A stretch of DNA of 64,000 nt from Escherichia coli (GCF_003334305.1 NZ_QOWS01000004.1); one strand, 5' to 3'. Counted from the stretch's first letter, positions 1,174 to 53,810 are shown. Program-made: numbers and translations. Notes: a model not told the origin generated them from the sequence alone.

Positions 1174-3804
1174 TTATTGCAATTTCGCGCTGACCCAGCC
1201 TTTCACACTGGCTAACGCTGCAGGTAAGGCCGCAGCATCCGTACCACCGGCTTGCGCCATGTCAGGACGTCCACCACCCTTGCCGCCCACCTGCTGAGCG
1301 ACCATACCAATCAGTTCCCCTGCTTTCACACGATCTGTGACGTCCTTAGATACGCCTGCAATCAGAGAAACCTTACCTTCGGCTACCGTTGCCAGCACGA
1401 TAATTGTCGACCCCAGCTGATTTTTTAAATCGTCAACCATGGTACGCAACATTTTCGGCTCAACACCGCTAAGCTCGCTAACCAACAGCTTAACACCATT
1501 AACATCAATTGCCTTACTGGAAAGATTTGCGCTCTCCTGTGCGGCAGCTTGTTCTTTAAGCTGTTGTAGTTCTTTTTCTAACTGACGCGTACGTTCCAGT
1601 ACTGAGCGCACTTTATCCGCCAGATTATTGCTATCGCCTTTCAGCAGATGCGCGACTTCGCTTAAGCGATCGCTGTCTGCATGAACGGTGGTGATAGCGC
1701 CTTCTCCGGTTACCGCTTCGATACGACGAACGCCTGCAGCAGTACCCGATTCAGAGATGATGCGGAACAGACCAATATCACCAGTGCGGCTGGCGTGAGT
1801 ACCGCCACACAGCTCGGTGGAGAAATCGCCCATGCTCAGCACGCGTACACGCTCATCATACTTCTCGCCGAACAGCGCCATCGCACCTTTCGCTTTCGCC
1901 GCTTCGAGATCCATGATGTTGGTTTCGATCGGCAAATTGCGACGAATCTGTGCGTTCACCAGGTCTTCGACCGCACGAATCTCTTCCGGTTTCATCGCTT
2001 CGTTGTGTGAGAAGTCGAAGCGCAGCACCTTGTCGTTAACCAGTGAACCTTTCTGCGATACATGAGTCCCCAGAACCTGGCGCAGCGCAGCGTGCATCAG
2101 GTGCGTTGCGGAGTGATTCAGACGAATACGGGCGCGACGAGCCTCATCAACATCAGCCTGCACAGCGTCGCCCACTTTCAGAGAACCCGCAGCAAGTTTA
2201 CCGATGTGACCAATCGCCTGGCCGTATTTCTGCGTATCTTCCACCGCGAAGGAGAAGTTAGCGCCTTTCAGTTCGCCTTTATCACCAACCTGACCGCCGG
2301 ATTCCGCATAGAATGGTGTTTGATCCAGCACGACCACAGCTTCCTGGCCTGCATTGATGGCATCAACCGCTTTACCATCAACAAACAGCGCGGTCACTTT
2401 GCCGTTCAGTTCCAGATGGTCATAGCCTTTAAATTCAGATGCACTATCAACACGGATCATTGCGTTGTAATCGGCACCAAAGCCGCTGGCTTCGCGCGCG
2501 CGACGACGCTGCTCTTCCATTGCTGCTTCAAAACCAGCTTCGTCAACTTTGATGTTGCGCTCACGACAAACATCAGCCGTCAGGTCAACCGGGAAGCCAT
2601 AGGTGTCGTACAGACGGAAAGCCGTTTCACCATCCAGCGTATCACCAGAAAGTTTTGCCAGCTCTTCATCCAGCAACGCCAGACCGCGCTCCAGAGTACG
2701 GGCAAACTGCTCTTCTTCAGTCTTCAGCACCTGCTCAACCTGCGCCTGCTGGCGTTTCAGGTCTTCACCCGCAGAGCCCATAACGTCGATCAGCGGACCA
2801 ACCAGTTTGTAGAAGAAGGTTTCTTTCGCGCCGAGCATATTGCCGTGACGCACTGCGCGACGAATGATACGACGCAGTACATAACCACGGTTTTCATTGG
2901 ACGGCATTACGCCATCCGCGATCAGGAACGCACAAGAACGAATGTGGTCAGCGATTACGCGCAGCGATTTATTGCTCAGATCGGTCGCGCCAGTGACTTT
3001 CGCTACCGCCTGGATCAACGTGCGGAACAGGTCGATGTCATAGTTAGAGTTAACGTGTTGCAGCACCGCAGCAATACGCTCCAGACCCATACCGGTATCT
3101 ACAGACGGCTTCGGCAGCGGTTCCATCGTGCCATCTGCCTGGCGGTTGAACTGCATGAAGACGATGTTCCAGATCTCAATGTAGCGGTCGCCGTCTTCTT
3201 CCGGACTTCCCGGAGGGCCACCCCAAATGTGGTCGCCGTGATCGTAGAAGATTTCGGTGCACGGGCCGCACGGACCAGTGTCACCCATCTGCCAGAAGTT
3301 GTCAGATGCGTATGGCGCACCTTTGTTATCGCCGATGCGAATAATACGTTCGCGCGGGATCCCGACTTCTTTTTCCCAGATTTCGTAGGCTTCGTCGTCG
3401 CTTTCATAGACGGTAACCCACAGACGCTCTTTCGGCAGGGCAAACCATTTTTCGCTGGTCAGCAGTTCCCATGCAAACTGAATGGCATCGTGTTTGAAAT
3501 AGTCGCCGAAGCTGAAGTTGCCCAGCATTTCGAAGAAGGTATGGTGACGCGCGGTGTAACCGACGTTTTCCAGGTCGTTGTGTTTACCACCCGCACGCAC
3601 GCAGCGTTGGGAAGTGGTAGCGCGGGAATAATTACGCTTGTCGAGCCCAAGGAACACATCCTTGAACTGGTTCATCCCGGCGTTGGTAAACAACAAAGTT
3701 GGGTCGTTATGGGGTACCAGGGAGCTGCTGGCAACTACCTGATGTCCCTTACTATGGAAAAAGTCGAGAAACGCCTGACGGATCTCAGCGGTGCTCTTGC
3801 TCAT
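1174..3804 (-). CDS. alaS: Alanine--tRNA ligase
   Basis: ORF track 876 aa, starts [24 protein letters not shown]; class II aaRS; position downstream of recX. Confidence 0.97.
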
Positions 3805-6457: not shown

Positions 6458-7543
6458 TTACTGCACGCGCGCCAGCGCCACGGCTTGTCCTAACTGCCAG
6501 ACCGCCATTGCGTAATGGGTGCTGTGGTTATAACGGGTAATGGTGTAGAAGTTCGGCAGACCGTACCAGTACTGGTAACCGGTACCGACATCCAGACGCA
6601 GCAGGCTGGCTTGTTGATGGTTGCCCAGCGGCTGCTGTGGCGTTAAACCTGCCGTGGCAAGCTGCGAAATGCTGTACCTGGTTTTGAAGCCATTTGGCAA
6701 GCCAGGAGCCTGACCGTTTGCCATTACCGCGACCTGATCGCCTTTCACCCAGCCGTGCGCTTTGAAATAGTTCGCCACGCTACCGATCGCATCAACCGGA
6801 TCCCACAGGTTGATATGCCCGTCGCCGCTGAAATCTACCGCATATTGTTTGTAAGACGACGGCATAAACTGTCCGTAGCCCATCGCCCCGGCAAAGGAAC
6901 CTTTCAGATTGAGCGGATCGTCCTGCTCGTCGCGCGCCATCAACAGGAAGGTTTCCAGCTCGCCAGAGAAATACTCCGCGCGGCGTGGGTAGTTAAATGA
7001 CAGCGTTGCCAGCGCATCGAGGATGCGAGTTTTCCCCATCACGCGCCCCCAGCGGGTTTCAACGCCGATAATCCCGACGATAATTTCCGGCGGTACGCCA
7101 TACACCTGCCACGCGCGATTCAACGCATCTTCATACTGATTCCAGAAAACCACACCGTTCTGCACGTTGTCCGGCGTAATAAATTTTTTGCGATAACGGA
7201 GCCATGCGCCGTTCGGACCTGATGGCGGTTTCACCGATGTGGTTGGTGCCTGGTTATCCATCAGCCGCAGTACCGAATCCAGACGTTTCGCCTGGGAGAG
7301 AATTTCCTGCAACTGCTGACGATCGAAACCGTGTTTGTTCACCATTTTGTCGATGAACTGCTGGGCATTCGGGTTATTAGCGAAATCGCCGCCCATCTGC
7401 ATCACATTGTGCTGCGGCTCAAGCAGGAAGCCGCCAGACGGCGTTCCGGTGGTCGTTTCAGTCTCAGTAGGTTTTGGCTTGCTGCTACAGGCGGCAAGCA
7501 ACACAAAAAGGGGAAGCAATGTTACATAACGACGCTTGAACAT
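6458..7543 (-). CDS. mltB: Membrane-bound lytic murein transglycosylase B (lipoprotein)
   Basis: ORF track 6458..7648; start taken at MFKRRYVTLLPLFVLLAACSS (lipobox LAAC) giving ~361 aa. Confidence 0.9.
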   Translation of the reverse strand: MFKRRYVTLLPLFVLLAACSSKPKPTETETTTGTPSGGFLLEPQHNVMQMGGDFANNPNAQQFIDKMVNKHGFDRQQLQEILSQAKRLDSVLRLMDNQAPTTSVKPPSGPNGAWLRYRKKFITPDNVQNGVVFWNQYEDALNRAWQVYGVPPEIIVGIIGVETRWGRVMGKTRILDALATLSFNYPRRAEYFSGELETFLLMARDEQDDPLNLKGSFAGAMGYGQFMPSSYKQYAVDFSGDGHINLWDPVDAIGSVANYFKAHGWVKGDQVAVMANGQAPGLPNGFKTRYSISQLATAGLTPQQPLGNHQQASLLRLDVGTGYQYWYGLPNFYTITRYNHSTHYAMAVWQLGQAVALARVQ

Positions 7544-7780
7544 GAGGGGTCCATTTAACAGATTCAACCAGGGGCAAGTATGGTAAAGCATCACGCCCCA
7601 CACAAGGAAGCGGTAGTCACTGCCCGATACGGACTTTACATAACTCAACTCATTCCCCTCGCTATCCTTTTACTCAAACTTTCAAATTAAAATATTTATC
7701 TTTCATTTTGAGATCAAAATAACACTTTTAAATCTTTCAATCTGATTAGATTAGGTTGCCGTTTGGTAATAAAACAATAA

Positions 7781-40132: not shown

Positions 40133-40155
40133 AAGATGTATTTATATTACATCTT
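40133..40155. promoter_or_regulatory. NsrR-type operator-like palindrome upstream of ygbA (aagatgtatttatattacatctt)
   Basis: 8-nt perfect inverted arms AAGATGTA / TACATCTT about 18 nt upstream of the ygbA start; ygbA is a known NsrR target. Confidence 0.6.
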
Positions 40156-40401
40156 AATCTTAAAGGGCACTATGACTCTAAAGAAGAAAGGTTCGCCAAC
40201 CGACGCAATTTTGCGTACTTGCTTCATAAGCATCACGCAAAAGCTGCAAAACAGCATCTTTCCCGGAACCAGCATCAAGAACTCACCGTTCGCTTCTTCC
40301 CCTGAAATGATTAACTCCGGTATCATGTGCGCCTTATGTGATTACAACGAAAATAAAAACCATCACACCCCATTTAATATCAGGGAACCGGACATAACCC
40401 C

Positions 40402-42996: not shown

Positions 42997-43068
42997 TATT
43001 AACGACAACTGACGAATCAAATAAAAATACCCTGTATAATAGGAAAGCTTATTTTACAGGGTAAAACC

Positions 43069-43725
43069 ATGCCATCTACACGCTATCAAAAAATCAATGC
43101 CCATCACTATCGCCATATATGGGTCGTTGGTGATATTCATGGTGAATATCAGTTATTACAATCCCGCTTACATCAACTCTCTTTTTTCCCCGAAACCGAC
43201 TTACTTATTTCTGTCGGCGATAATATTGATCGTGGGCCGGAGAGTCTTGACGTCCTGCGCCTGCTAAACCAGCCCTGGTTTATCTCCGTTAAAGGCAACC
43301 ACGAAGCAATGGCGCTGGATGCGTTCGCGACCGGCGATGGCAATATGTGGCTTGCCAGCGGTGGTGACTGGTTTTTCGATTTAAATGATTCAGAGCAACA
43401 AGAGGCAATAGATCTGTTGCTGAAATTCCATCACCTTCCACATATTATTGAAATCACTAACGACAACATAAAATATGTCATCGCACATGCAGATTATCCG
43501 GGGAGTGAATATCTCTTTGGTAAAGAAATAGCGGAGAGCGAATTACTCTGGCCTGTTGATCGTGTGCAGAAATCGCTTAATGGCGAGTTACAACAAATAA
43601 ACGGCGCTGATTATTTTATATTTGGACATATGATGTTTGATAACATTCAGACGTTCGCTAACCAGATTTATATTGATACCGGCACGCCGAAAAGCGGGCG
43701 GCTGTCATTTTATAAAATAAAGTAG
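43069..43725 (+). CDS. pphB: Serine/threonine protein phosphatase 2 (PPP family)
   Basis: ORF track 218 aa; metallophosphatase motifs GDIHG, GDNIDRG, GNHE. Confidence 0.93.
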   Translation: MPSTRYQKINAHHYRHIWVVGDIHGEYQLLQSRLHQLSFFPETDLLISVGDNIDRGPESLDVLRLLNQPWFISVKGNHEAMALDAFATGDGNMWLASGGDWFFDLNDSEQQEAIDLLLKFHHLPHIIEITNDNIKYVIAHADYPGSEYLFGKEIAESELLWPVDRVQKSLNGELQQINGADYFIFGHMMFDNIQTFANQIYIDTGTPKSGRLSFYKIK

Positions 43726-43726
43726 T

Positions 43727-43752
43727 CTCATGCTTCTTCTGTGAAGCATGAG
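43727..43752. terminator. Hairpin between convergent pphB and ygbI (ctcatgcttc-ttctgt-gaagcatgag)
   Basis: 10-bp perfect inverted repeat directly after the pphB stop. Confidence 0.5.
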
Positions 43753-43775
43753 TAACCAAATGTTATTGCAGGCCA

Positions 43776-44573
43776 TTATTCATTTTTCGCAACCAGCAAA
43801 GAGAGATCCTGCTTCGCCAGCGCGCGACTGGCACTCTCCGGCAAACCGTCGTCTGTGATAATCTGATCAAACTCGCTTAATGGTAACGCCAGCCATGTCG
43901 CCACCTGACCATATTTCGTCGCATCACAGACCAAAACTCGCTGGCGGCTGGCACTGGCAATCGCCCGTTTCACCGTGACTTTATCTTCCGCTGGCGTAGA
44001 AATCCCCCGCACACTCCATGACGATGCAGAAATAAAAGCCTGATCAATCATCAGGCTGCGCAGCATGGTCGCAGCGGCTTCCCCGACACAGGAACGGTTT
44101 TCCCGACACACTGCACCGCCAGTGTGAATAATTGTGCAATTACTGTTGTCGAGCAAGTAGTTCGCAATAACGAAATCGTTTGTGACCACAGTCAGTGACT
44201 CCATGTGAATCAGATGCTGTGCTATCGCTAACGTGGTCGTTCCCGCATCCAGATAGATACAACTTCCCGGCTGAACAAGACTTGCCGCCAGCTTGCCAAT
44301 AGCCGCTTTTTGCGTCATTGCCAGCGCAGTTTTTACCTGATGAGAAGGTTCATGCGCCACGCGTCCCGGAGACTGGACGCCTCCGGACACCAGCACAACG
44401 GCTCCCTGCTGCTCCAGTTTTTGTAAATCCCGACGAATGGTCATATGTGACACATTCATTCTGTCCGTTAGTTCAGCAATACTGACAATGCCTTTTTCAG
44501 CTACCATCTCAAGGATGATTTGGCGACGCTCTACGGGTATCAACTTTTGCTCCTTCCTTTGTCCTGCTGACAT
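43776..44573 (-). CDS. ygbI: DeoR-family transcriptional regulator
   Basis: ORF track 265 aa; HTH IVSIAELTDRMNVSHMTIRRDLQKLE; the true start may be a few codons internal. Confidence 0.88.
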   Translation of the reverse strand: MSAGQRKEQKLIPVERRQIILEMVAEKGIVSIAELTDRMNVSHMTIRRDLQKLEQQGAVVLVSGGVQSPGRVAHEPSHQVKTALAMTQKAAIGKLAASLVQPGSCIYLDAGTTTLAIAQHLIHMESLTVVTNDFVIANYLLDNSNCTIIHTGGAVCRENRSCVGEAAATMLRSLMIDQAFISASSWSVRGISTPAEDKVTVKRAIASASRQRVLVCDATKYGQVATWLALPLSEFDQIITDDGLPESASRALAKQDLSLLVAKNE

Positions 44574-44738
44574 TCTACGCTATTTGCCTGCGAAACGTGC
44601 GCGGCGCAACTAACGCTTAGTTCACATAAAATAACACACAATGTTAATTTATGTGAATCAGCTCACCATATCGTTATCTTCCAGCGCTTATATTCACAAT
44701 ATCAAACAAAATATCACTTAAATTAACAAGGAGAGCAG

Positions 44739-45647
44739 ATGAAAACGGGATCTGAGTTTCATGTCGGTATCGTTGGCTTAGGGTCAATGGGAATGGGAGC
44801 AGCACTGTCATGTGTCCGCGCAGGTCTTTCTACCTGGGGCGCAGACCTGAACAGCAATGCCTGCGCTACGTTGAAAGAGGCAGGTGCTTGCGGGGTTTCT
44901 GATAACGCCGCGACGTTTGCCGAAAAACTGGACGCTCTGCTGGTGCTGGTGGTCAATGCGGCCCAGGTTAAACAGGTGCTGTTTGGTGAAACAGGCGTTG
45001 CACAACATCTGAAACCCGGTACGGCAGTAATGGTTTCTTCCACTATCGCTAGTGCTGATGCGCAAGAAATTGCTACCGCTCTGGCTGGATTCGATCTGGA
45101 AATGCTGGATGCGCCAGTTTCTGGTGGTGCAGTAAAAGCCGCTAACGGTGAAATGACTGTCATGGCCTCCGGTAGCGATATTGCCTTTGAACGACTGGCA
45201 CCCGTGCTGGAAGCCGTTGCCGGAAAAGTTTATCGCATAGGTGCAGAACCGGGACTAGGTTCGACCGTAAAAATTATTCACCAGTTGTTAGCGGGCGTAC
45301 ATATTGCTGCCGGAGCCGAAGCGATGGCACTTGCAGCCCGTGCGGGGATCCCGCTGGATGTGATGTATGACGTCGTGACCAATGCCGCCGGAAATTCCTG
45401 GATGTTCGAAAACCGGATGCGTCATGTGGTGGATGGCGATTACACCCCGCATTCAGCCGTCGATATTTTTGTTAAGGATCTTGGTCTGGTTGCCGATACA
45501 GCCAAAGCCCTGCACTTCCCGCTGCCATTGGCCTCAACAGCATTGAATATGTTCACCAGCGCCAGTAACGCAGGTTACGGGAAAGAAGACGATAGCGCAG
45601 TTATCAAGATTTTCTCTGGCATCACTCTACCGGGAGCGAAATCATGA
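44739..45647 (+). CDS. ygbJ: L-threonate dehydrogenase (3-hydroxyisobutyrate dehydrogenase family)
   Basis: ORF track 302 aa; Rossmann motif VGIVGLGSMGMGAA. Confidence 0.9.
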   Translation: MKTGSEFHVGIVGLGSMGMGAALSCVRAGLSTWGADLNSNACATLKEAGACGVSDNAATFAEKLDALLVLVVNAAQVKQVLFGETGVAQHLKPGTAVMVSSTIASADAQEIATALAGFDLEMLDAPVSGGAVKAANGEMTVMASGSDIAFERLAPVLEAVAGKVYRIGAEPGLGSTVKIIHQLLAGVHIAAGAEAMALAARAGIPLDVMYDVVTNAAGNSWMFENRMRHVVDGDYTPHSAVDIFVKDLGLVADTAKALHFPLPLASTALNMFTSASNAGYGKEDDSAVIKIFSGITLPGAKS

Positions 45648-46906
45648 TCAAGATTGGCGTTATCGCCGATGATTTTACCGGCGCGACGGATATCGCCAGT
45701 TTTCTGGTGGAAAACGGTCTACCAACGGTACAAATTAACGGTGTTCCAACAGGTAAAATGCCGGAAGCAATCGACGCACTGGTGATCAGCCTGAAAACGC
45801 GCTCCTGTCCGGTGGTTGAAGCCACACAGCAATCGCTGGCGGCTCTGAGCTGGTTGCAACAGCAAGGTTGCAAACAGATCTATTTCAAATACTGCTCTAC
45901 TTTCGACAGTACGGCGAAAGGTAATATCGGCCCGGTTACCGATGCATTAATGGATGCTCTCGACACGCCGTTTACGGTCTTCTCTCCGGCCCTGCCGGTC
46001 AACGGACGTACGGTTTATCAGGGGTATTTGTTCGTAATGAATCAACTGCTGGCCGAATCCGGGATGCGCCATCACCCGGTAAATCCCATGACCGACAGCT
46101 ATCTTCCCCGTCTGGTTGAAGCGCAATCCACAGGGCGCTGCGGCGTCGTTTCGGCACATGTTTTCGAACAAGGTGTGGATGCCGTTCGTCAAGAGCTGGC
46201 TCGCTTACAGCAAGAGGGCTACCGCTACGCGGTGCTTGATGCGCTGACCGAACACCATCTGGAAATTCAGGGAGAAGCCTTGCGCGATGCCCCACTGGTA
46301 ACGGGTGGTTCTGGTCTGGCGATTGGCCTGGCCCGGCAGTGGGCGCAAGAAAACGGTAACCAGGCTCGCGAAGCAGGGCGTCCGCTCGCTGGGCGCGGCG
46401 TAGTGCTCTCCGGTTCATGCTCTCAAATGACCAACCGCCAGGTGGCACATTACCGTCAAATTGCACCAGCCCGTGAAGTTGATGTGGCACGCTGCCTCTC
46501 AACCGAAACTCTGGCCGCTTATGCACACGAACTGGCAGAGTGGGTTCTGGGCCAGGAAAGTGTACTTGCTCCACTGGTTTTTGCCACCGCCAGCACTGAC
46601 GCATTGGCAGCAATTCAACAGCAATACGGTGCACAAAAAGCCAGTCAGGCAGTAGAAACTCTATTTTCTAAACTAGCGGCGCGGTTAGCAGCGGAAGGCG
46701 TGACACGCTTTATTGTCGCAGGCGGTGAGACCTCCGGCGTAGTCACACAGAGCCTGGGCATAAAAGGGTTTCATATTGGCCCAACCATTTCTCCCGGCGT
46801 GCCGTGGGTAAACGCACTGGATAAGCCTGTCTCACTCGCCCTTAAATCTGGCAACTTCGGTGATGAAGCCTTTTTTTCACGAGCCCAAAGAGAGTTTTTA
46901 TCATGA
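45644..46906 (+). CDS. ygbK: 3-oxo-tetronate kinase (DUF1537 four-carbon acid sugar kinase family)
   Basis: ORF track 420 aa MIKIGVIADDFTGATDIASFL; overlaps ygbJ stop. Confidence 0.88.
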   Translation: MIKIGVIADDFTGATDIASFLVENGLPTVQINGVPTGKMPEAIDALVISLKTRSCPVVEATQQSLAALSWLQQQGCKQIYFKYCSTFDSTAKGNIGPVTDALMDALDTPFTVFSPALPVNGRTVYQGYLFVMNQLLAESGMRHHPVNPMTDSYLPRLVEAQSTGRCGVVSAHVFEQGVDAVRQELARLQQEGYRYAVLDALTEHHLEIQGEALRDAPLVTGGSGLAIGLARQWAQENGNQAREAGRPLAGRGVVLSGSCSQMTNRQVAHYRQIAPAREVDVARCLSTETLAAYAHELAEWVLGQESVLAPLVFATASTDALAAIQQQYGAQKASQAVETLFSKLAARLAAEGVTRFIVAGGETSGVVTQSLGIKGFHIGPTISPGVPWVNALDKPVSLALKSGNFGDEAFFSRAQREFLS

Positions 46907-47541
46907 GCGATTTCGCAAAAGTAGAGCAGTCTTTGCGAGAGGAGATGACGCGGATTGCCAGTTCATTCTTTCAGCGCGGCTATGCAACCGGTTCGGCTGG
47001 CAATCTGTCGCTGCTTTTACCTGACGGGAATTTACTGGCGACACCGACAGGTTCATGCCTGGGCAATCTCGATCCGCAGCGGCTTTCCAAAGTCGCCGCG
47101 GATGGCGAATGGTTAAGTGGTGACAAACCCTCAAAAGAGGTGCTCTTTCATCTGGCGCTGTATCGCAACAATCCGCGCTGTAAAGCGGTGGTGCATTTGC
47201 ACAGCACATGGTCGACGGCGCTTTCCTGCCTGCAAGGGCTGGACAGCAGCAACGTTATTCGTCCGTTCACACCATACGTGGTGATGCGGATGGGAAATGT
47301 CCCGCTGGTGCCTTATTACCGACCGGGCGATAAACGCATCGCACAGGATCTGGCGGAACTGGCAGCAGACAATCAGGCTTTTTTACTGGCAAATCATGGC
47401 CCAGTGGTTTGCGGTGAAAGCCTGCAAGAAGCCGCCAACAATATGGAAGAGCTGGAGGAAACGGCAAAGCTGATTTTTATTCTCGGTGACCGCCCGATCC
47501 GTTATCTGACCGCAGGTGAAATTGCGGAATTAAGGAGTTAA
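46903..47541 (+). CDS. ygbL: Class II aldolase/adducin-family 3-oxo-tetronate 4-phosphate decarboxylase
   Basis: ORF track 212 aa; overlaps ygbK stop. Confidence 0.88.
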
Positions 47542-47545
47542 TGCA

Positions 47546-48322
47546 ATGCCTCGTTTTGCAGCTAATTTATCCATGATGTTCACCGAAGTGCCTTTTATTG
47601 AACGCTTCGCCGCAGCGCGAAAAGCCGGGTTCGATGCTGTGGAATTTCTGTTTCCCTATGACTACTCCACCCTGCAAATCCAAAAGCAACTGGAGCAAAA
47701 CCATCTGACACTGGCGCTGTTCAATACCGCTCCCGGAGATATTAATGCGGGGGAATGGGGATTATCCGCCCTTCCCGGACGTGAGCACGAAGCACACGCA
47801 GACATCGACCTGGCACTGGAATATGCATTGGCGCTCAATTGTGAACAAGTCCATGTGATGGCAGGCGTCGTGCCCGCTGGCGAAGACGCTGAACGGTACC
47901 GGGCAGTATTTATCGATAATCTCCGCTACGCTGCCGACCGCTTTGCGCTACACGGCAAGCGAATATTAGTTGAAGCACTCAGCCCCGACGTTAAGCCTCA
48001 TTATCTCTTCTCCAGCCAGTATCAGGCACTGGCTATTGTTGAAGAGGTTGCGCGAGATAACGTGTTTATTCAACTAGATACTTTTCATGCGCAAAAAGTA
48101 GATGGCAACCTGACGCATTTAATCCGCGACTACGCTGGGAAATATGCGCACGTACAAATTGCCGGACTACCTGATCGACATGAACCGGACGATGGAGAAA
48201 TCAACTATCCGTGGCTGTTCCGCCTGTTCGATGAGGTGGGATATCAGGGCTGGATCGGTTGTGAATATAAACCTCGTGGCCTCACCGAAGAAGGGCTTGG
48301 CTGGTTTGACGCCTGGCGCTAA
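47546..48322 (+). CDS. ygbM: 2-oxo-tetronate isomerase (hydroxypyruvate isomerase-like TIM barrel)
   Basis: ORF track 258 aa [34 protein letters not shown]. Confidence 0.88.
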
Positions 48323-48410
48323 TTCGTTAAATCCCTAATTACAACGTACCCATACATCCCCCCATCTACGGATGGGGTAGGTTAACTATAACTTTCAGAC
48401 AGGGTTTCCC

Positions 48411-49775
48411 ATGTCCACAATTACATTGTTATGCATTGCGTTAGCTGGCGTAATCATGCTGTTGCTGCTGGTCATCAAGGCAAAGGTACAACCATTCGTT
48501 GCTCTGCTCCTCGTCAGCCTGTTAGTCGCACTTGCGGCGGGTATACCGGCGGGCGAAGTGGGTAAAGTGATGATCGCCGGGATGGGCGGTGTGCTTGGTT
48601 CCGTCACTATTATTATTGGTCTGGGCGCTATGCTGGGGCGTATGATCGAACACTCTGGTGGTGCAGAGTCACTGGCTAATTATTTCAGTCGCAAGTTAGG
48701 TGACAAACGAACTATCGCTGCGCTGACTCTGGCAGCGTTCTTCCTCGGTATTCCCGTCTTCTTTGATGTCGGCTTTATTATTCTTGCGCCAATCATTTAC
48801 GGTTTTGCCAAGGTTGCCAAAATATCGCCACTCAAATTTGGCCTGCCTGTCGCTGGAATCATGCTAACTGTTCATGTGGCGGTACCGCCGCATCCAGGCC
48901 CTGTCGCCGCAGCGGGGTTACTCCACGCAGACATCGGCTGGCTAACCATCATCGGTATTGCGATTTCTATTCCCGTAGGGATTGTTGGCTACTTTGCAGC
49001 GAAAATAATCAATACGCGCCAATATGCGATGTCGGTGGAAGTACTGGAACAGATGCAACTGGCTCCGGCCAGTGAGGAAGGCGCAACAAAATTAAGCGAT
49101 AAAATAAATCCACCGGGCGTCGCGCTGGTCACCTCGCTAATTGTTATTCCTATCGCGATTATCATGGCGGGTACGGTTTCCGCAACACTGATGCCGCCTT
49201 CGCATCCCCTGCTTGGTACGCTACAGCTGATCGGCTCACCAATGGTAGCTCTAATGATTGCGCTGGTGCTGGCATTCTGGTTATTGGCTTTACGTCGCGG
49301 CTGGAGCTTACAACACACCAGCGACATTATGGGCTCAGCCCTTCCCACTGCGGCGGTAGTGATTTTGGTTACTGGTGCTGGAGGGGTATTTGGCAAAGTG
49401 CTGGTGGAATCGGGCGTCGGCAAAGCCCTTGCCAATATGCTACAAATGATTGACCTGCCTCTGTTACCAGCCGCATTTATTATTTCACTGGCTCTGCGTG
49501 CATCGCAGGGGTCAGCAACCGTAGCAATCCTGACAACCGGCGGGTTACTCTCAGAAGCGGTGATGGGATTGAATCCGATTCAGTGCGTATTGGTGACGCT
49601 GGCAGCCTGCTTTGGTGGGCTTGGCGCGTCACATATTAATGACTCAGGGTTCTGGATTGTGACCAAATATCTGGGGTTGTCGGTAGCAGACGGTCTGAAA
49701 ACCTGGACAGTGTTAACGACCATTCTCGGTTTTACCGGATTCTTAATTACCTGGTGCGTATGGGCGGTAATTTGA
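48411..49775 (+). CDS. ygbN: GntP-family acid-sugar permease
   Basis: ORF track 454 aa, polytopic membrane protein. Confidence 0.9.
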   Translation: MSTITLLCIALAGVIMLLLLVIKAKVQPFVALLLVSLLVALAAGIPAGEVGKVMIAGMGGVLGSVTIIIGLGAMLGRMIEHSGGAESLANYFSRKLGDKRTIAALTLAAFFLGIPVFFDVGFIILAPIIYGFAKVAKISPLKFGLPVAGIMLTVHVAVPPHPGPVAAAGLLHADIGWLTIIGIAISIPVGIVGYFAAKIINTRQYAMSVEVLEQMQLAPASEEGATKLSDKINPPGVALVTSLIVIPIAIIMAGTVSATLMPPSHPLLGTLQLIGSPMVALMIALVLAFWLLALRRGWSLQHTSDIMGSALPTAAVVILVTGAGGVFGKVLVESGVGKALANMLQMIDLPLLPAAFIISLALRASQGSATVAILTTGGLLSEAVMGLNPIQCVLVTLAACFGGLGASHINDSGFWIVTKYLGLSVADGLKTWTVLTTILGFTGFLITWCVWAVI

Positions 49776-49780
49776 CCTTA

Positions 49781-49816
49781 ATAAAAAGGTCCGATGGGCA
49801 TCGGACCTTTTATTTA
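49781..49816. terminator. Bidirectional rho-independent terminator shared by convergent ygbN and ecdD
   Basis: ataaaaa-ggtccgatg-ggc-catcggacc-tttttattt: stem flanked by an A-run and a T-run. Confidence 0.8.
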
Positions 49817-50050
49817 ACGCTTACCTTCCACCAGCAGCGGCGGGATGCTCGGCACCATTGGCGCGTCATCAATATCTTTCTGCGTCATGCGGAACGCTTC
49901 GGGATAATGTTCGCGGCTGGTACGGCGCAGCGGTTCGGTATCGCGCCAGGTATAAAGGCAATGCTGGCACTGATATACCGTCCAGACATCTTTCACCGGC
50001 GATTTCGCCATCACTTCAATCTGTTCATCGGCACAACGTGGACAAATCAT
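49814..50050 (-). CDS. ecdD: Small zinc-ribbon subunit of UbiD-family phenolic acid decarboxylase (BsdD/EcdD-like)
   Basis: ORF track 78 aa MICPRCADEQIEVMAKSPVKDVWTVYQCQHCLYTW (CxxC...CxxC); last gene of the UbiX-UbiD-small subunit operon. Confidence 0.75.
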   Translation of the reverse strand: MICPRCADEQIEVMAKSPVKDVWTVYQCQHCLYTWRDTEPLRRTSREHYPEAFRMTQKDIDDAPMVPSIPPLLVEGKR

Positions 50051-50060
50051 CTTCTTCTCC

Positions 50061-51488
50061 TTATTTACGTGCAGCCAGCATAGCGGTCAGTTTTTCAGCC
50101 CAGGCTTTGGTTTCCGGTAAATCCACCACCGGTTGGCTGTAGTGACCACGGTTGTCCGGGGCGACAGGCGTAGTGGCGTCGATAATCAGCTTGTCGGTGA
50201 TCCCCGCAGGGCTTGAGCCTGGATCGAGTTCCAGCACGGACATATTCGGCAACTGCACCAAATCCCCTGCCGGGTTCACTTTCGAGGAGAGCGCCCACAT
50301 CACCTGCGGCAGGTTGAACGGGTCAACGTCTTCATCGACCATAATCACCATCTTCACGTAGCCCAGACCATGCGGCGTGGTCATTGCGCGCAGGCCCACC
50401 GCGCGGGCAAAGCCGCCGTAGCGTTTTTTGGTGGAGATAATCGCCAGCAGGCCATGGGTGTACATGGCGTTTACCGCCTGCACTTCAGGGAACTCGGCTT
50501 TCAGCTGCTGATACAGCGGCACGCAGGTGGCTGGCCCCATCAGGTAGTCGATTTCGGTCCACGGCATACCGAGGTACAGCGATTCGAAAATCGGCCTGGT
50601 GCGGTAAGAGACTTTATCGATGCGCACCACGGTCATGTTACGCCCGCCGGAGTAGTGCCCGGTAAACTCACCGAACGGCCCTTCGATTTCGCGTTTACGG
50701 CTTTCGATAACCCCTTCGAGGATCACTTCTGAACCCCACGGCACATCAAAACCGGTCAGCGGGGCGGTGGCGATCGGGTACGGGCTTTCACGCAGCGCGC
50801 CTGCCATTTCATACTCAGACTGATCGTATTTCAGCGGCGTGGCCCCCATCAGCGTGATGATCGGATCGTTACCGAGCGTGATCGCAATCGGCAGATCTTC
50901 ACCGCGCTCTTCTGCTTTATGCAGATGCAGGGCGATATCGTGCATCGGCACCGGTTGCAGGCCGAGCTTACGCTTGCCCTTCACTTCCATGCGGTAGATG
51001 CCGACGTTCTGCTTGCCGAAGTTATCTGGGTCGAGCGGATCGCGGGAAACCACGCAGGCTTTGTCGAGATAGAAACCGCCATCGCCATCGTTTAAACGAA
51101 ACAGCGGCAGGATATCGAACAGGTTAATCTCTTCGCCATCGACGGTGTTCTGCGCCCAGGCTGGATTGGCGCGGCGCTCCGGGGCAATCGGGAAGTTATC
51201 CCAGCGGCGGATAAACTCATCAATCTGCTTTTTGACCGGGGTGTTTGGTGGCAGGCCAAGGGAAATCGCGTGGTTCTGCCAGGAACCGATGGTATTCATC
51301 GTCACGCGGGCATCGGTAAAGCCGCGAATATTATCAAACCACAGCGCGGGCGCGCCGTCGCCGATACGCCCGGTGGCGTTAGCTGCTGCTGCCAGATCCG
51401 GCTCAGCGTTCACCTCTTCGCTGATTTTCAGTAACTGGCCGTGGTCATCAAGCGCCTGTAAAAAGCTGCGTAAATCATCAAATGCCAT
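50061..51488 (-). CDS. ecdC: UbiD-family (prenyl-FMN-dependent) aromatic acid decarboxylase
   Basis: ORF track 475 aa MAFDDLRSFLQALDDHGQLLKISEEVNAEPDL. Confidence 0.85.
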   Translation of the reverse strand: MAFDDLRSFLQALDDHGQLLKISEEVNAEPDLAAAANATGRIGDGAPALWFDNIRGFTDARVTMNTIGSWQNHAISLGLPPNTPVKKQIDEFIRRWDNFPIAPERRANPAWAQNTVDGEEINLFDILPLFRLNDGDGGFYLDKACVVSRDPLDPDNFGKQNVGIYRMEVKGKRKLGLQPVPMHDIALHLHKAEERGEDLPIAITLGNDPIITLMGATPLKYDQSEYEMAGALRESPYPIATAPLTGFDVPWGSEVILEGVIESRKREIEGPFGEFTGHYSGGRNMTVVRIDKVSYRTRPIFESLYLGMPWTEIDYLMGPATCVPLYQQLKAEFPEVQAVNAMYTHGLLAIISTKKRYGGFARAVGLRAMTTPHGLGYVKMVIMVDEDVDPFNLPQVMWALSSKVNPAGDLVQLPNMSVLELDPGSSPAGITDKLIIDATTPVAPDNRGHYSQPVVDLPETKAWAEKLTAMLAARK

Positions 51489-52081
51489 TATTCATTCTCC
51501 TGAGAAAAATTCCGGGCCTGCGGCAATCCTTGCCAGCGCCTGGCATGGGGATGTTCGAGGCCAAATTTATCCAGCACGCGGGCTACCACATGGTGGACAA
51601 TGTCATCTACCGTTTCGGGATGGTTATAAAAGGCAGGCATCGGCGGCACCATCGCCACGCCCATGCGTGAAAGTGCGAGCATATTTTCGAGATGGATGGT
51701 GCTAAGCGGCATTTCACGCGGCACCAGCACCAGTTTGCGGCCTTCTTTGAGCACGACGTCCGCCGCGCGCCCTACCAGGCCATCGGCGTAACCAGCGCGG
51801 ATACCGGCGAGCGTTTTCATACTGCACGGAATAACGATCATGCCGTCGGTACGAAAAGAACCGGATGAGATGATCGCCGCCTGATCCGCCGGGTTATGGC
51901 TGAAGTCTGCGAGGGCAGCAACATCGCGAGCGCTGTAAGGCGTTTCCAGTTCAATGGTGGTTTTCGCCCACTTCGACATCACCAGATGAGTCTCGACATT
52001 CGGCATCTCCCGCAGCGCTTGCAGTAATGCCACACCAAGAGGCGCACCGGTAGCCCCTGTCATCCCGACGATCAGTTTCAT
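51488..52081 (-). CDS. ecdB: UbiX/Pad1-family flavin prenyltransferase
   Basis: ORF track 197 aa MKLIVGMTGATGAPLGVALLQAL; stop overlaps the ecdC start. Confidence 0.85.
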   Translation of the reverse strand: MKLIVGMTGATGAPLGVALLQALREMPNVETHLVMSKWAKTTIELETPYSARDVAALADFSHNPADQAAIISSGSFRTDGMIVIPCSMKTLAGIRAGYADGLVGRAADVVLKEGRKLVLVPREMPLSTIHLENMLALSRMGVAMVPPMPAFYNHPETVDDIVHHVVARVLDKFGLEHPHARRWQGLPQARNFSQENE

Positions 52082-52227
52082 TGCTTATCCTCTTAATTGT
52101 TCGTATACGAACATTATTATTAACATACTCCTTCATTTCCACAGCGGCAAGGATTGAAAAGTAACAACATCTTCTTCGTCACTAAAAAACCGCTATGATA
52201 GCGACAGAGAATTAGCCCGGAGTTTAC

Positions 52228-52635
52228 ATGGCGTTACGAAATAAAGCGTTCCATCAGTTACGACAGCTTTTTCAGCAGCACACGGCTCGCTGGCAGCACG
52301 AGTTACCTGACCTGACCAAACCACAGTACGCGGTGATGCGCGCCATTGCTGATAAACCTGGTATCGAACAGGTGGCACTGATAGAAGCAGCTGTCAGCAC
52401 CAAAGCAACGTTAGCAGAAATGTTGGCAAGAATGGAAAATCGTGGCTTAGTCAGACGTGAACATGACCCCGCTGATAAGCGGCGACGCTTTGTCTGGTTG
52501 ACTGCCGAAGGCGAAAAGATACTTGCTGCGGCGATACCCATTGGTGACAGCGTGGATGAGGAATTTTTGGGGCGTTTGAGTGGAGAAGAGCAGGAGCTGT
52601 TTATGCAGCTGGTGCGCAAGATGATGAACGCATAG
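52228..52635 (+). CDS. hosA: MarR/SlyA-family transcriptional regulator
   Basis: ORF track 135 aa; winged-helix region QYAVMRAIADKPGIEQVALIEAAVSTKATLAEMLARMENRGLVRR; divergent from ecdBCD. Confidence 0.8.
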   Translation: MALRNKAFHQLRQLFQQHTARWQHELPDLTKPQYAVMRAIADKPGIEQVALIEAAVSTKATLAEMLARMENRGLVRREHDPADKRRRFVWLTAEGEKILAAAIPIGDSVDEEFLGRLSGEEQELFMQLVRKMMNA

Positions 52636-52755: not shown

Positions 52756-53748
52756 TTACTCGCGGAACAGCGCTTCGATATTCAGCCCCTGCGTTTGTAG
52801 GATTTCGCGCAAACGGCGCAGGCCTTCAACCTGAATCTGGCGAACACGTTCACGGGTGAGGCCAATTTCACGACCTACATCTTCCAGTGTTGCCGCTTCG
52901 TACCCCAGCAAACCGAATCGACGTGCCAGCACTTCACGCTGTTTGGCGTTCAGCTCGAACAGCCATTTGACGATGCTCTGCTTCATATCATCATCTTGCG
53001 TGGTATCTTCCGGACCGTTCTCTTTTTCATCGGCCAGGATGTCCAGCAACGCTTTTTCGGAATCACCACCCAGCGGGGTGTCTACCGAGGTAATGCGCTC
53101 GTTAAGACGAAGCATACGGCTGACGTCATCAACTGGCTTATCCAGTTGCTCTGCGATCTCTTCCGCACTTGGTTCATGGTCCAGCTTATGGGACAACTCA
53201 CGTGCGGTTCGCAGGTAAACGTTCAGCTCCTTTACGATGTGAATCGGCAAACGAATAGTACGGGTTTGGTTCATAATCGCCCGTTCAATCGTCTGGCGAA
53301 TCCACCAGGTTGCGTATGTCGAGAAGCGGAAACCACGTTCCGGGTCAAACTTCTCTACCGCGCGGATCAGCCCCAGGTTGCCCTCTTCGATAAGGTCCAG
53401 CAACGCCAGACCACGATTGCCATAACGGCGGGCAATTTTTACCACCAGACGCAAGTTACTCTCGATCATCCGGCGGCGAGAGGCGACATCTCCACGCAGT
53501 GCGCGACGCGCAAAATAAACTTCTTCTTCGGCCGTTAACAGTGGTGAATAACCAATCTCACCAAGGTAAAGCTGAGTCGCGTCCAACACACGCTGTGTGG
53601 CTCCCTGCGATAACAGTTCCTCTTCGGCCAAATCGTTATCACTGGGTTCCTCTTCTACTAAGGCCTTTTCGTCAAAAACCTCAACTCCGTTCTCATCAAA
53701 TTCCGCATCTTCATTTAAATCATGAACTTTCAGCGTATTCTGACTCAT
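52756..53748 (-). CDS. rpoS: RNA polymerase sigma factor RpoS (sigma-38), apparently intact
   Basis: ORF track 52756..53784; start at [21 protein letters not shown], 330 aa; no amber at codon 33. Confidence 0.97.
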
Positions 53749-53810
53749 AAGGTGGCTCCTACCCGTGATCCCTTGACGGAACATTCAAGCAAAAGCCTGG
53801 TTCCGCCGAT

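Follow-up and report, generated by a model that had tools for sequence, protein, structure and literature searches.

The ygbI/ygbJKLMN cluster for L-threonate breakdown is complete in an Escherichia coli isolate and lies in the polymorphic mutS-rpoS interval

Between positions 43776 and 49775 of a 64,000-nucleotide stretch of Escherichia coli DNA (NZ_QOWS01000004.1; the whole stretch is referred to below as the window, and its numbering is used throughout) lies the ordinary, already described E. coli ygbI/ygbJKLMN cluster for L-threonate breakdown, which is complete here. We consider it very likely that this region is a repressor-controlled operon through which L-threonate, a four-carbon sugar acid and product of ascorbate oxidation, is used as a carbon source via a four-step pathway. 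The limits of the cluster are exact, the stop codons of ygbI (minus strand) and ygbN having their last bases at 43776 and 49775, respectively. A listing of the open reading frames (ORFs) between 41000 and 53000 gives one minus-strand frame ending at 43776 followed by five co-directional plus-strand frames, six in all (Table 1). Both ygbJ/ygbK and ygbK/ygbL overlap by the four nucleotides ATGA, ygbL is separated from ygbM by 4 nucleotides, and an 88-nucleotide gap precedes ygbN. None of the six reading frames contains an internal stop, all of them being open and full length.

The preliminary description of this DNA had proposed a DeoR regulator divergent from a dehydrogenase, a kinase, a class II aldolase-like decarboxylase, a TIM-barrel isomerase and a GntP permease, all intact and with overlaps at ygbJ/K and ygbK/L. 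This arrangement is borne out in its gene order, its families and its intactness by the ORF listing, the NCBIfam and Pfam profiles and the open frames, and both overlaps are those just given. In megablast searches of 5,426 complete E. coli genomes, the set used for all population counts below, positions 43000-51000 matched E. coli A7 (NZ_CP028767.1) and about ten other genomes with 100% identity along the full query length. The RefSeq annotation of A7 runs mutS, pphB, ygbI, ltnD, otnK, ygbL, ygbM, ygbN, the hydroxyarylic acid decarboxylase subunits D/C/B, MarR and rpoS, and sets no pseudogene flag on any of the six genes. A longer ygbI product of 265 residues, beginning with the ORF's first ATG (44573), was rejected, as the RefSeq start, the coverage of the NCBIfam profile and homologues of 253-254 residues all favour 255 residues. 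Long antisense ORFs inside ygbK and ygbN (e.g. 45999-46634, minus strand) were taken as chance ORFs, and Rfam models at gathering thresholds matched no RNA family between 40000 and 55000.

Assignment of each ORF by hidden Markov models, suggested earlier as a check, was carried out with NCBIfam equivalog models, whose curated whole-protein cut-offs are exceeded by all six products. YgbI scored 484.3 bits with NF040890 (trans_reg_YgbI; cut-off 400) over profile positions 1-253 of 253, YgbJ 473.6 bits with the ThreonDh equivalog NF043037 (cut-off 350) over residues 7-301, and YgbK 599.7 bits with NF043035 (OxoTetrKin; cut-off 350) over profile positions 1-417 of 418. The corresponding scores were 334.8 bits for YgbL (NF043034, OxoTetrPhDc; cut-off 250), 395.4 bits for YgbM (NF043033, OxoTetrIsom; cut-off 325) and 826.9 bits for YgbN (NF007332; cut-off 524), which also matched TIGR00791 (gntP) with 344 bits. 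In Pfam, YgbK is divided into SBD_N (residues 4-228) and NBD_C (residues 253-411, covering 168 of 168 model positions), which together make up the former DUF1537. YgbL is an Aldolase_II protein (PF00596, residues 13-190), and YgbM belongs to AP_endonuc_2 (PF01261, residues 21-256), with a xylose isomerase-like TIM barrel. Structural relatives are consistent with these assignments: YgbK aligns through residues 1-418 with 3dqq from Salmonella, and along almost its entire length with 1yzy (Haemophilus HI1011) and 5dmh, while YgbM matches PDB entry 1k77, which is the structure of K-12 YgbM itself.

RefSeq/PGAP gives the ygbM product the name ‘HPr family phosphocarrier protein’ (model NF007441). 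This looks like a naming slip, since a PTS-HPr domain is lacking and the score is above the cut-off of the OtnI equivalog. In the same A7 RefSeq records the ygbL product is named simply ‘aldolase’, and the gene symbol ‘flhA’ is attached to fhlA.

The best 120 relatives of the kinase come from Salmonella, Citrobacter, Serratia, Pectobacterium, Dickeya, Edwardsiella and other genera. The same six-gene module, a DeoR gene divergent from LtnD-OtnK-OtnC-OtnI-GntP, recurs in Pectobacterium parmentieri and Serratia aquatilis, where its chromosomal surroundings are unrelated to those in E. coli, and a GntP permease gene closes the module in Pectobacterium, Serratia and Salmonella alike. Salmonella enterica (CP130618.1, locus L006 5264-20432) likewise has this regulator and the four enzymes between mutS and rpoS, adjoined by ecdD, ecdC and MarR genes, and its OtnK is 80% identical. 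It differs in that its cluster is inverted relative to mutS and rpoS, in an additional gene, denD, between otnI and the permease gene, and in the permease itself, a GntP protein of 498 residues that scores 280 bits and so stays below the YgbN equivalog cut-off of 524. As six proteins above curated family cut-offs are combined with a six-gene module that recurs in Salmonella, Pectobacterium and Serratia, the conserved operon is real and not a product of chance. The Salmonella module is followed on one side by MarR-ecdC-ecdD-rpoS, and on the other LysR, MFS and DUF4440 genes lie between it and mutS; at 6938-7700 of the same locus, the place expected for ecdB, no gene was called.

The 195-bp spacer between ygbI and ygbJ appears to hold the control elements of the cluster, and it differs from that of K-12 at only 2 of 195 positions. 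In K-12, chromatin immunoprecipitation with exonuclease digestion (ChIP-exo) located a single YgbI site, which lies in the ygbI-ygbJ spacer and overlaps the promoter of ygbJ, and deletion of ygbI raised the expression of ygbJ, K, L, M and N (PMC8464067); an independent transcriptome decomposition arrived at the same model of YgbI as repressor (PMC6892915). With its equivalog match, its divergent position and a spacer nearly identical to the K-12 ChIP-exo target, YgbI of the window is expected to act as the same repressor. Across E. coli, Salmonella, Pectobacterium and Serratia the spacers have a mean identity of 56%, within which TGTTAAT..TGTGA, TCACC, TATATT and ATCAC..TTAACA stand out as conserved islands. 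The sequence TATGTGAATCAGCTCACCATA at 44650-44670 is, bar one spacer base, the CRP site footprinted in vitro in K-12 (PMC12871828). We also noted a near-palindrome, TTCACATAAAATAACA / TGTTAATTTATGTGAA, at 44621-44657; a further copy of its half-site, TCACTTAAATTAACA (44714-44728), comes shortly before the GGAG ribosome-binding site. The recurring 15-nucleotide motif (Table 1) is a candidate YgbI site.

If transcription starts about 7 nucleotides after TATATT, near 44701, the CRP site, centred at 44659.5, would lie about 41.5 bp upstream of the predicted start, which is class II geometry. YgbI would then bind two inverted 15-nucleotide sites about 72 bp apart, one overlapping a CRP half-site and the other between the start and the ribosome-binding site. 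By analogy with the K-12 footprint and repression data, we propose that ygbJKLM, and probably ygbN too, are read from one CRP-dependent promoter, which the divergently encoded YgbI would shut by binding the two inverted sites flanking the CRP site and -10 element; the exact operator, the transcription start and the inducer remain predictions in this model. A hairpin in the 88-nucleotide ygbM-ygbN spacer was considered as an attenuator or internal terminator and dropped, being no more stable than shuffled sequences (z = -0.74).

The chemistry assigned to the cluster is that of the four-step route of Zhang et al. 2016, in which, as summarised in PMC12540250 and PMC12994016, LtnD, OtnI, OtnK and OtnC take L-threonate to dihydroxyacetone phosphate (DHAP); according to the same summaries, deletion of pathway genes ends growth on L-threonate in the organisms tested. 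By analogy with these characterised species, L-threonate would be imported by YgbN and converted with NAD+ to 2-oxo-tetronate by YgbJ (LtnD). YgbM (OtnI) would isomerise this to 3-oxo-tetronate, YgbK (OtnK) would phosphorylate the latter at the expense of ATP, and YgbL (OtnC) would decarboxylate the phosphorylated product to DHAP, which would enter glycolysis. The substrate of YgbN is presumed from gene context, and K-12 YgbN has also been implicated in the uptake of 2,4-dihydroxybutyrate (PMC12709889). The four-nucleotide overlaps and gap, together with the recurrence of the same module across genera, are the clustering expected of co-transcribed genes, and in K-12 RNA sequencing transcripts do span ygbK-ygbL (PMC4168707). 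A three-step L-threonate bypass by way of 2-OtnK together with 2-OtnC (cited from Guo et al. 2024 in PMC12540250) likewise starts with LtnD and ends in DHAP, but as described there it proceeds without OtnI and uses an F_bP_aldolase-type decarboxylase (PMC12540250). Since the window has OtnI and an Aldolase_II-type OtnC, it does not encode this bypass.

Some observations weigh against our assignment. The term ‘characterised system’ in the preliminary description fits the enzyme families and the K-12 repressor YgbI, but it is less secure for the E. coli pathway enzymes, which the K-12 RefSeq annotation still labels ‘putative’. The only growth phenotypes found for E. coli concern tartrate in derepressed K-12 and not threonate (PMC6452873, PMC8464067), and growth of the present strain on L-threonate is itself a prediction. 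In YgbM, which has four substitutions relative to K-12, L135 (47948-47950) replaces a proline shared by K-12, Nissle and the Brucella homologue 3ngf, and D148 (47987-47989) stands where K-12 and Nissle have glycine, at a position that is variable in 3ngf. Lastly, a generic sigma-70 and terminator scan was at chance level, with no excess over shuffled sequence (6 versus 5.5 promoters and 7 versus 6.7 terminators), and did not pick the TATATT element; because it missed both this conserved element and the ygbN terminator, the scan was not used as evidence, and it speaks neither for nor against the promoter model above.

The tartrate phenotypes give rise to a rival explanation, in which the native role of the cluster would be the catabolism of L- or meso-tartrate, as proposed for K-12 YgbI, and not that of L-threonate. 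A K-12 ygbI deletion mutant grows on 20 mM L-tartrate where the wild type does not (PMC8464067), and both laboratory evolutions on m-tartrate gained ygbI mutations with overexpression of ygbJKLMN (PMC6452873; PMC6892915); on these grounds YgbI figures in the K-12 literature as a regulator of tartrate catabolism. However, the phenotype appears only after artificial derepression and was seen by the original authors as a likely promiscuous activity (PMC6452873), all four enzymes exceed the cut-offs of threonate-pathway equivalogs, and PMC12540250 lists L-tartrate as one of the side substrates, known or potential, of LtnD enzymes from bacteria. Nor can the phenotype need a complete pathway, since it arises in K-12, whose kinase is without its conserved C-terminus (see below). 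We treat tartrate as a side substrate and consider a native role in tartrate catabolism improbable.

A second question is whether the cluster serves D-erythronate as well, as the label ‘L-threonate/D-erythronate utilisation’ in the preliminary description implied. The L-threonate branch of that label is upheld by four enzymes above their cut-offs, but the D-erythronate branch falls for want of its entry enzyme. The extra gene of the Salmonella cluster encodes the D-erythronate dehydrogenase DenD, a protein of the SDR/epimerase family (NF043036, 449.5 bits against a cut-off of 325). By tblastn, the Salmonella protein had no counterpart in any of the six frames of the window (64 kb; best E = 0.93), and at blastn sensitivity no DNA similar to Salmonella denD was found in any of the complete E. 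coli genomes. DenD is missing from the Pectobacterium and Serratia modules too. Compared with the pathway of Zhang et al. 2016 as summarised in later papers, the window has all four L-threonate enzymes and lacks DenD, hence the entry step for D-erythronate. A cluster for both acids has some appeal, given that both converge on 2-oxo-tetronate, that OtnI, OtnK and OtnC are common to the two routes in the account of PMC12994016, and that the Salmonella cluster carries both dehydrogenases. With DenD absent, the E. coli cluster encodes the L-threonate entry step only, and use of D-erythronate would require a side activity of LtnD, which makes a dual role quite unlikely. As DenD is absent from the complete E. 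coli genomes, we prefer to call this an L-threonate cluster, and E. coli annotation should say the same in place of ‘L-threonate/D-erythronate cluster’.

The K-12 MG1655 genes ygbI-ygbJKLMN (b2735-b2740) occupy the same locus in the same order with the same control region, and their proteins are 0-4 residues apart from those of the window, YgbK excepted; YgbJ differs at one residue, YgbL is identical, and the five proteins other than YgbK have the same lengths. Frameshifts or truncations on comparison with reference proteins had been named as what would refute the preliminary description, and the comparison did reveal a mismatch, YgbK being 420 residues long in the window and 388 in K-12, but the defect belongs to the K-12 reference and the window gene is intact. 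In the DNA alignment K-12 is without one T at window position 46792 (TTTCTCCC in the window, TTTC-CCC in K-12; about 8483 of the K-12 locus L002). After residue 382 the K-12 protein continues with ACRG and stops, giving a product that ends ...GPTISPACRG, and 91 untranslated bases separate ygbK from ygbL. The 38 residues lost form the end of the NBD_C domain and include PGVPWV and SLALKSGNFG, both present in the window and both invariant in 16 Enterobacterales OtnK sequences; 50% of the columns in the lost segment are invariant in this set, compared with 39% for the whole protein. As the window has the full-length gene of other genera, the K-12 reference is the variant. A 3' extension or misassembly of ygbK in the window was rejected, since a length of 419-424 residues and the C-terminal motifs are common to homologues of six genera and to three crystal structures; likewise, the best 120 of thousands of OtnK relatives are mostly 419-424 residues long.

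An exact match to the K-12 56-mer spanning the deletion is present in 371 of 4,574 cluster-bearing genomes, and all 40 deletion carriers among the matches listed appear to be derivatives of K-12 or other laboratory strains, including the commercial BLR(DE3). In the sampled matches outside K-12 the T is present, since these span 57 nucleotides of the genome record. RegulonDB has separate ygbJK and ygbLM operons, and an RNA sequencing transcript bridges them over a ‘92-bp intergenic’ gap (PMC4168707); both the split and this gap are most simply explained by the frameshift. The searchable literature yielded no report that pairs ygbK with a frameshift or pseudogene. Judged from its sequence, the K-12 kinase has presumably lost its activity, and we think it likely that K-12 otnK is a frameshifted and probably inactive gene, perhaps confined to the laboratory lineage, which would leave K-12 unable to run the L-threonate pathway.

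Beyond this deletion, K-12 differs from the window in having no ecd island, ygbN there abutting rpoS. To place both layouts in the species, we took a census of the complete genomes with 301-bp queries across each alternative junction. The ygbN-ecdD junction, which is the layout of this window, occurs in 1,593 genomes, the ygbN-rpoS junction of K-12 in 1,945, a junction of ygbN with an MBL hydrolase gene, the phylogroup B2 layout (e.g. Nissle 1917), in 1,042, and the pphB-ecdD junction of O157:H7, from which the ygb cluster is absent, in 806. Together the four account for 5,386 of the 5,426 genomes. They correspond to the four o454-nlpD layouts that have been published as typing patterns (Ewers et al. 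2014, PMC4209514). Pattern IV, of the enteropathogenic E. coli E2348/69 type, has o454 (ygbN), kpdD/C/B (ecdD/C/B), a slyA-like MarR gene and rpoS, which is the order in the window; we found no structural difference between them, and the functional ORF labels of that paper are older than the pathway assignment. Sporadic insertion sequence (IS) lesions occur as well. In E. coli TUM9757 (L003 8248-9909) an IS1A element directly after mutS stands in place of pphB, ygbI-ygbM and one third of ygbN at its 5' end, an IS1-mediated deletion that leaves only the 3' part of ygbN, and in CFIAFB20190172 an IS110-family element splits otnK. The view of the mutS-rpoS interval as a deletion and insertion hotspot is well supported by the match between junctions and published patterns and by these lesions. 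The comparison of presence and absence across strains, proposed along with it, places the cluster (at least 80% coverage) in 4,577 genomes (84%) and the ecd island in 2,381.

This polymorphism also bears on a further alternative, that the cluster, though its sequence is intact, is cryptic or in decay in this lineage and on its way to being lost, as in O157-type strains. One could cite for it the rearrangement hotspot itself, with 806 genomes lacking the cluster, one IS1-mediated deletion, one IS110 insertion in otnK and the K-12 otnK frameshift, as well as P135L and G148D of YgbM relative to K-12 and Nissle. On the other hand, the six genes have no stops or frameshifts, their profile matches are full length and the control elements are conserved. 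The differences from K-12 and Nissle are mostly silent (against Nissle, 124 nucleotide differences in the six genes give only 26 amino-acid differences), which is consistent with purifying selection, and the cluster is kept in the great majority of genomes. Decay is accordingly the least credible of the alternatives, and we hold it to be very improbable next to a functional L-threonate operon.

The ygb module is bounded by terminators of its own on both sides, as indicated by two hairpins and their distribution. Between the convergent genes pphB and ygbI, the RNA of 43726-43775 (minus strand) folds with -18.4 kcal/mol (z = -4.05; 0 of 200 shuffles as stable), and this hairpin is not found in O157-type genomes, which lack the ygb cluster. 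The hairpin after ygbN reaches -17.1 kcal/mol (z = -5.11; again 0 of 200 shuffles as stable). K-12 matches the window through this second hairpin and diverges directly after it, and O157 joins the ecd side just beyond it. The statement that the cluster abuts a variable ecd island was correct, ecdD beginning directly after the ygbN terminator. Further along, the mechanical ORF of rpoS has 342 residues (52756-53784) and the annotated one 330, and the nlpD annotation is given as 1,095 or 1,140 nucleotides in different records, both apparently matters of start-codon choice. A short ‘hypothetical protein’ gene between ygbA and mutS (3148-3327 of the A7 locus L001, about 40147-40326 of the window) measures 180 nucleotides in A7 and 135 nucleotides in TUM9757 and O157.

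Table 1. Genes, control elements and flanking features of the ygb cluster, in window coordinates.
Feature	Position	Strand	Description
Hairpin, probable ygbI terminator	43727-43752		between convergent pphB (ends 43725) and ygbI (ends 43776); 10-bp stem
ygbI	43776-44543	-	DeoR-family transcriptional repressor, 255 residues, divergent from ygbJ
Divergent control region	44544-44738		195-bp ygbI-ygbJ spacer
15-nucleotide motif TCAC(A/T)TAAATTAACA, inverted copies	44642-44656, 44714-44728		further partner arm 44621-44636
CRP site TGTGAatcagcTCACC	44652-44667		match to K-12 footprinted sequence except for one spacer base
Candidate -10 TATATT	44689-44694		conserved in four-genus alignment
GGAG ribosome-binding site	44730-44733		upstream of ygbJ
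ygbJ = ltnD	44739-45647	+	NAD-dependent L-threonate (2-)dehydrogenase, 302 residues; pathway step 1
ygbK = otnK	45644-46906	+	3-oxo-tetronate kinase (former DUF1537), full-length, 420 residues; pathway step 3
ygbL = otnC	46903-47541	+	decarboxylase, class II aldolase fold; pathway step 4, to DHAP + CO2
ygbM = otnI	47546-48322	+	2-oxo-tetronate isomerase, TIM barrel, 258 residues; pathway step 2
ygbN	48411-49775	+	GntP-family permease, 454 residues; presumed L-threonate:H+ symporter
Bidirectional terminator hairpin	49784-49811		A-run/stem/U-run, common to convergent ygbN and ecdD
Adjoining variable island, outside the cluster	49814-52635		ecdD, ecdC, ecdB (-), MarR-family regulator (+); from RefSeq of identical strain
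ecdD	49814-50050	-	hydroxyarylic acid decarboxylase subunit
ecdC	50061-51488	-	hydroxyarylic acid decarboxylase subunit
ecdB	51488-52081	-	hydroxyarylic acid decarboxylase subunit
MarR-family regulator	52228-52635	+	divergent from ecdDCB
rpoS	from 52756		annotated 52756-53748, 330 residues

Taken as a whole, both the catabolic operon and the polymorphic interval around it have been described before, and neither shows anything unexpected; the four-way junction census adds current frequencies for the classical mutS-rpoS typing patterns. The point of modest interest lies outside the window, in the frameshifted kinase copy of the K-12 reference. K-12-based work on this pathway, including Keio mutants, laboratory evolution on tartrate, regulon maps and metabolic models, uses a kinase without the invariant C-terminal motifs. 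If our interpretation of this frameshift is true, the tartrate phenotypes of derepressed K-12 would come from a partial pathway without its kinase, and most natural isolates, including this one, would be able to run the L-threonate pathway where K-12 cannot. Natural isolates such as this one are the right background in which to study L-threonate physiology.

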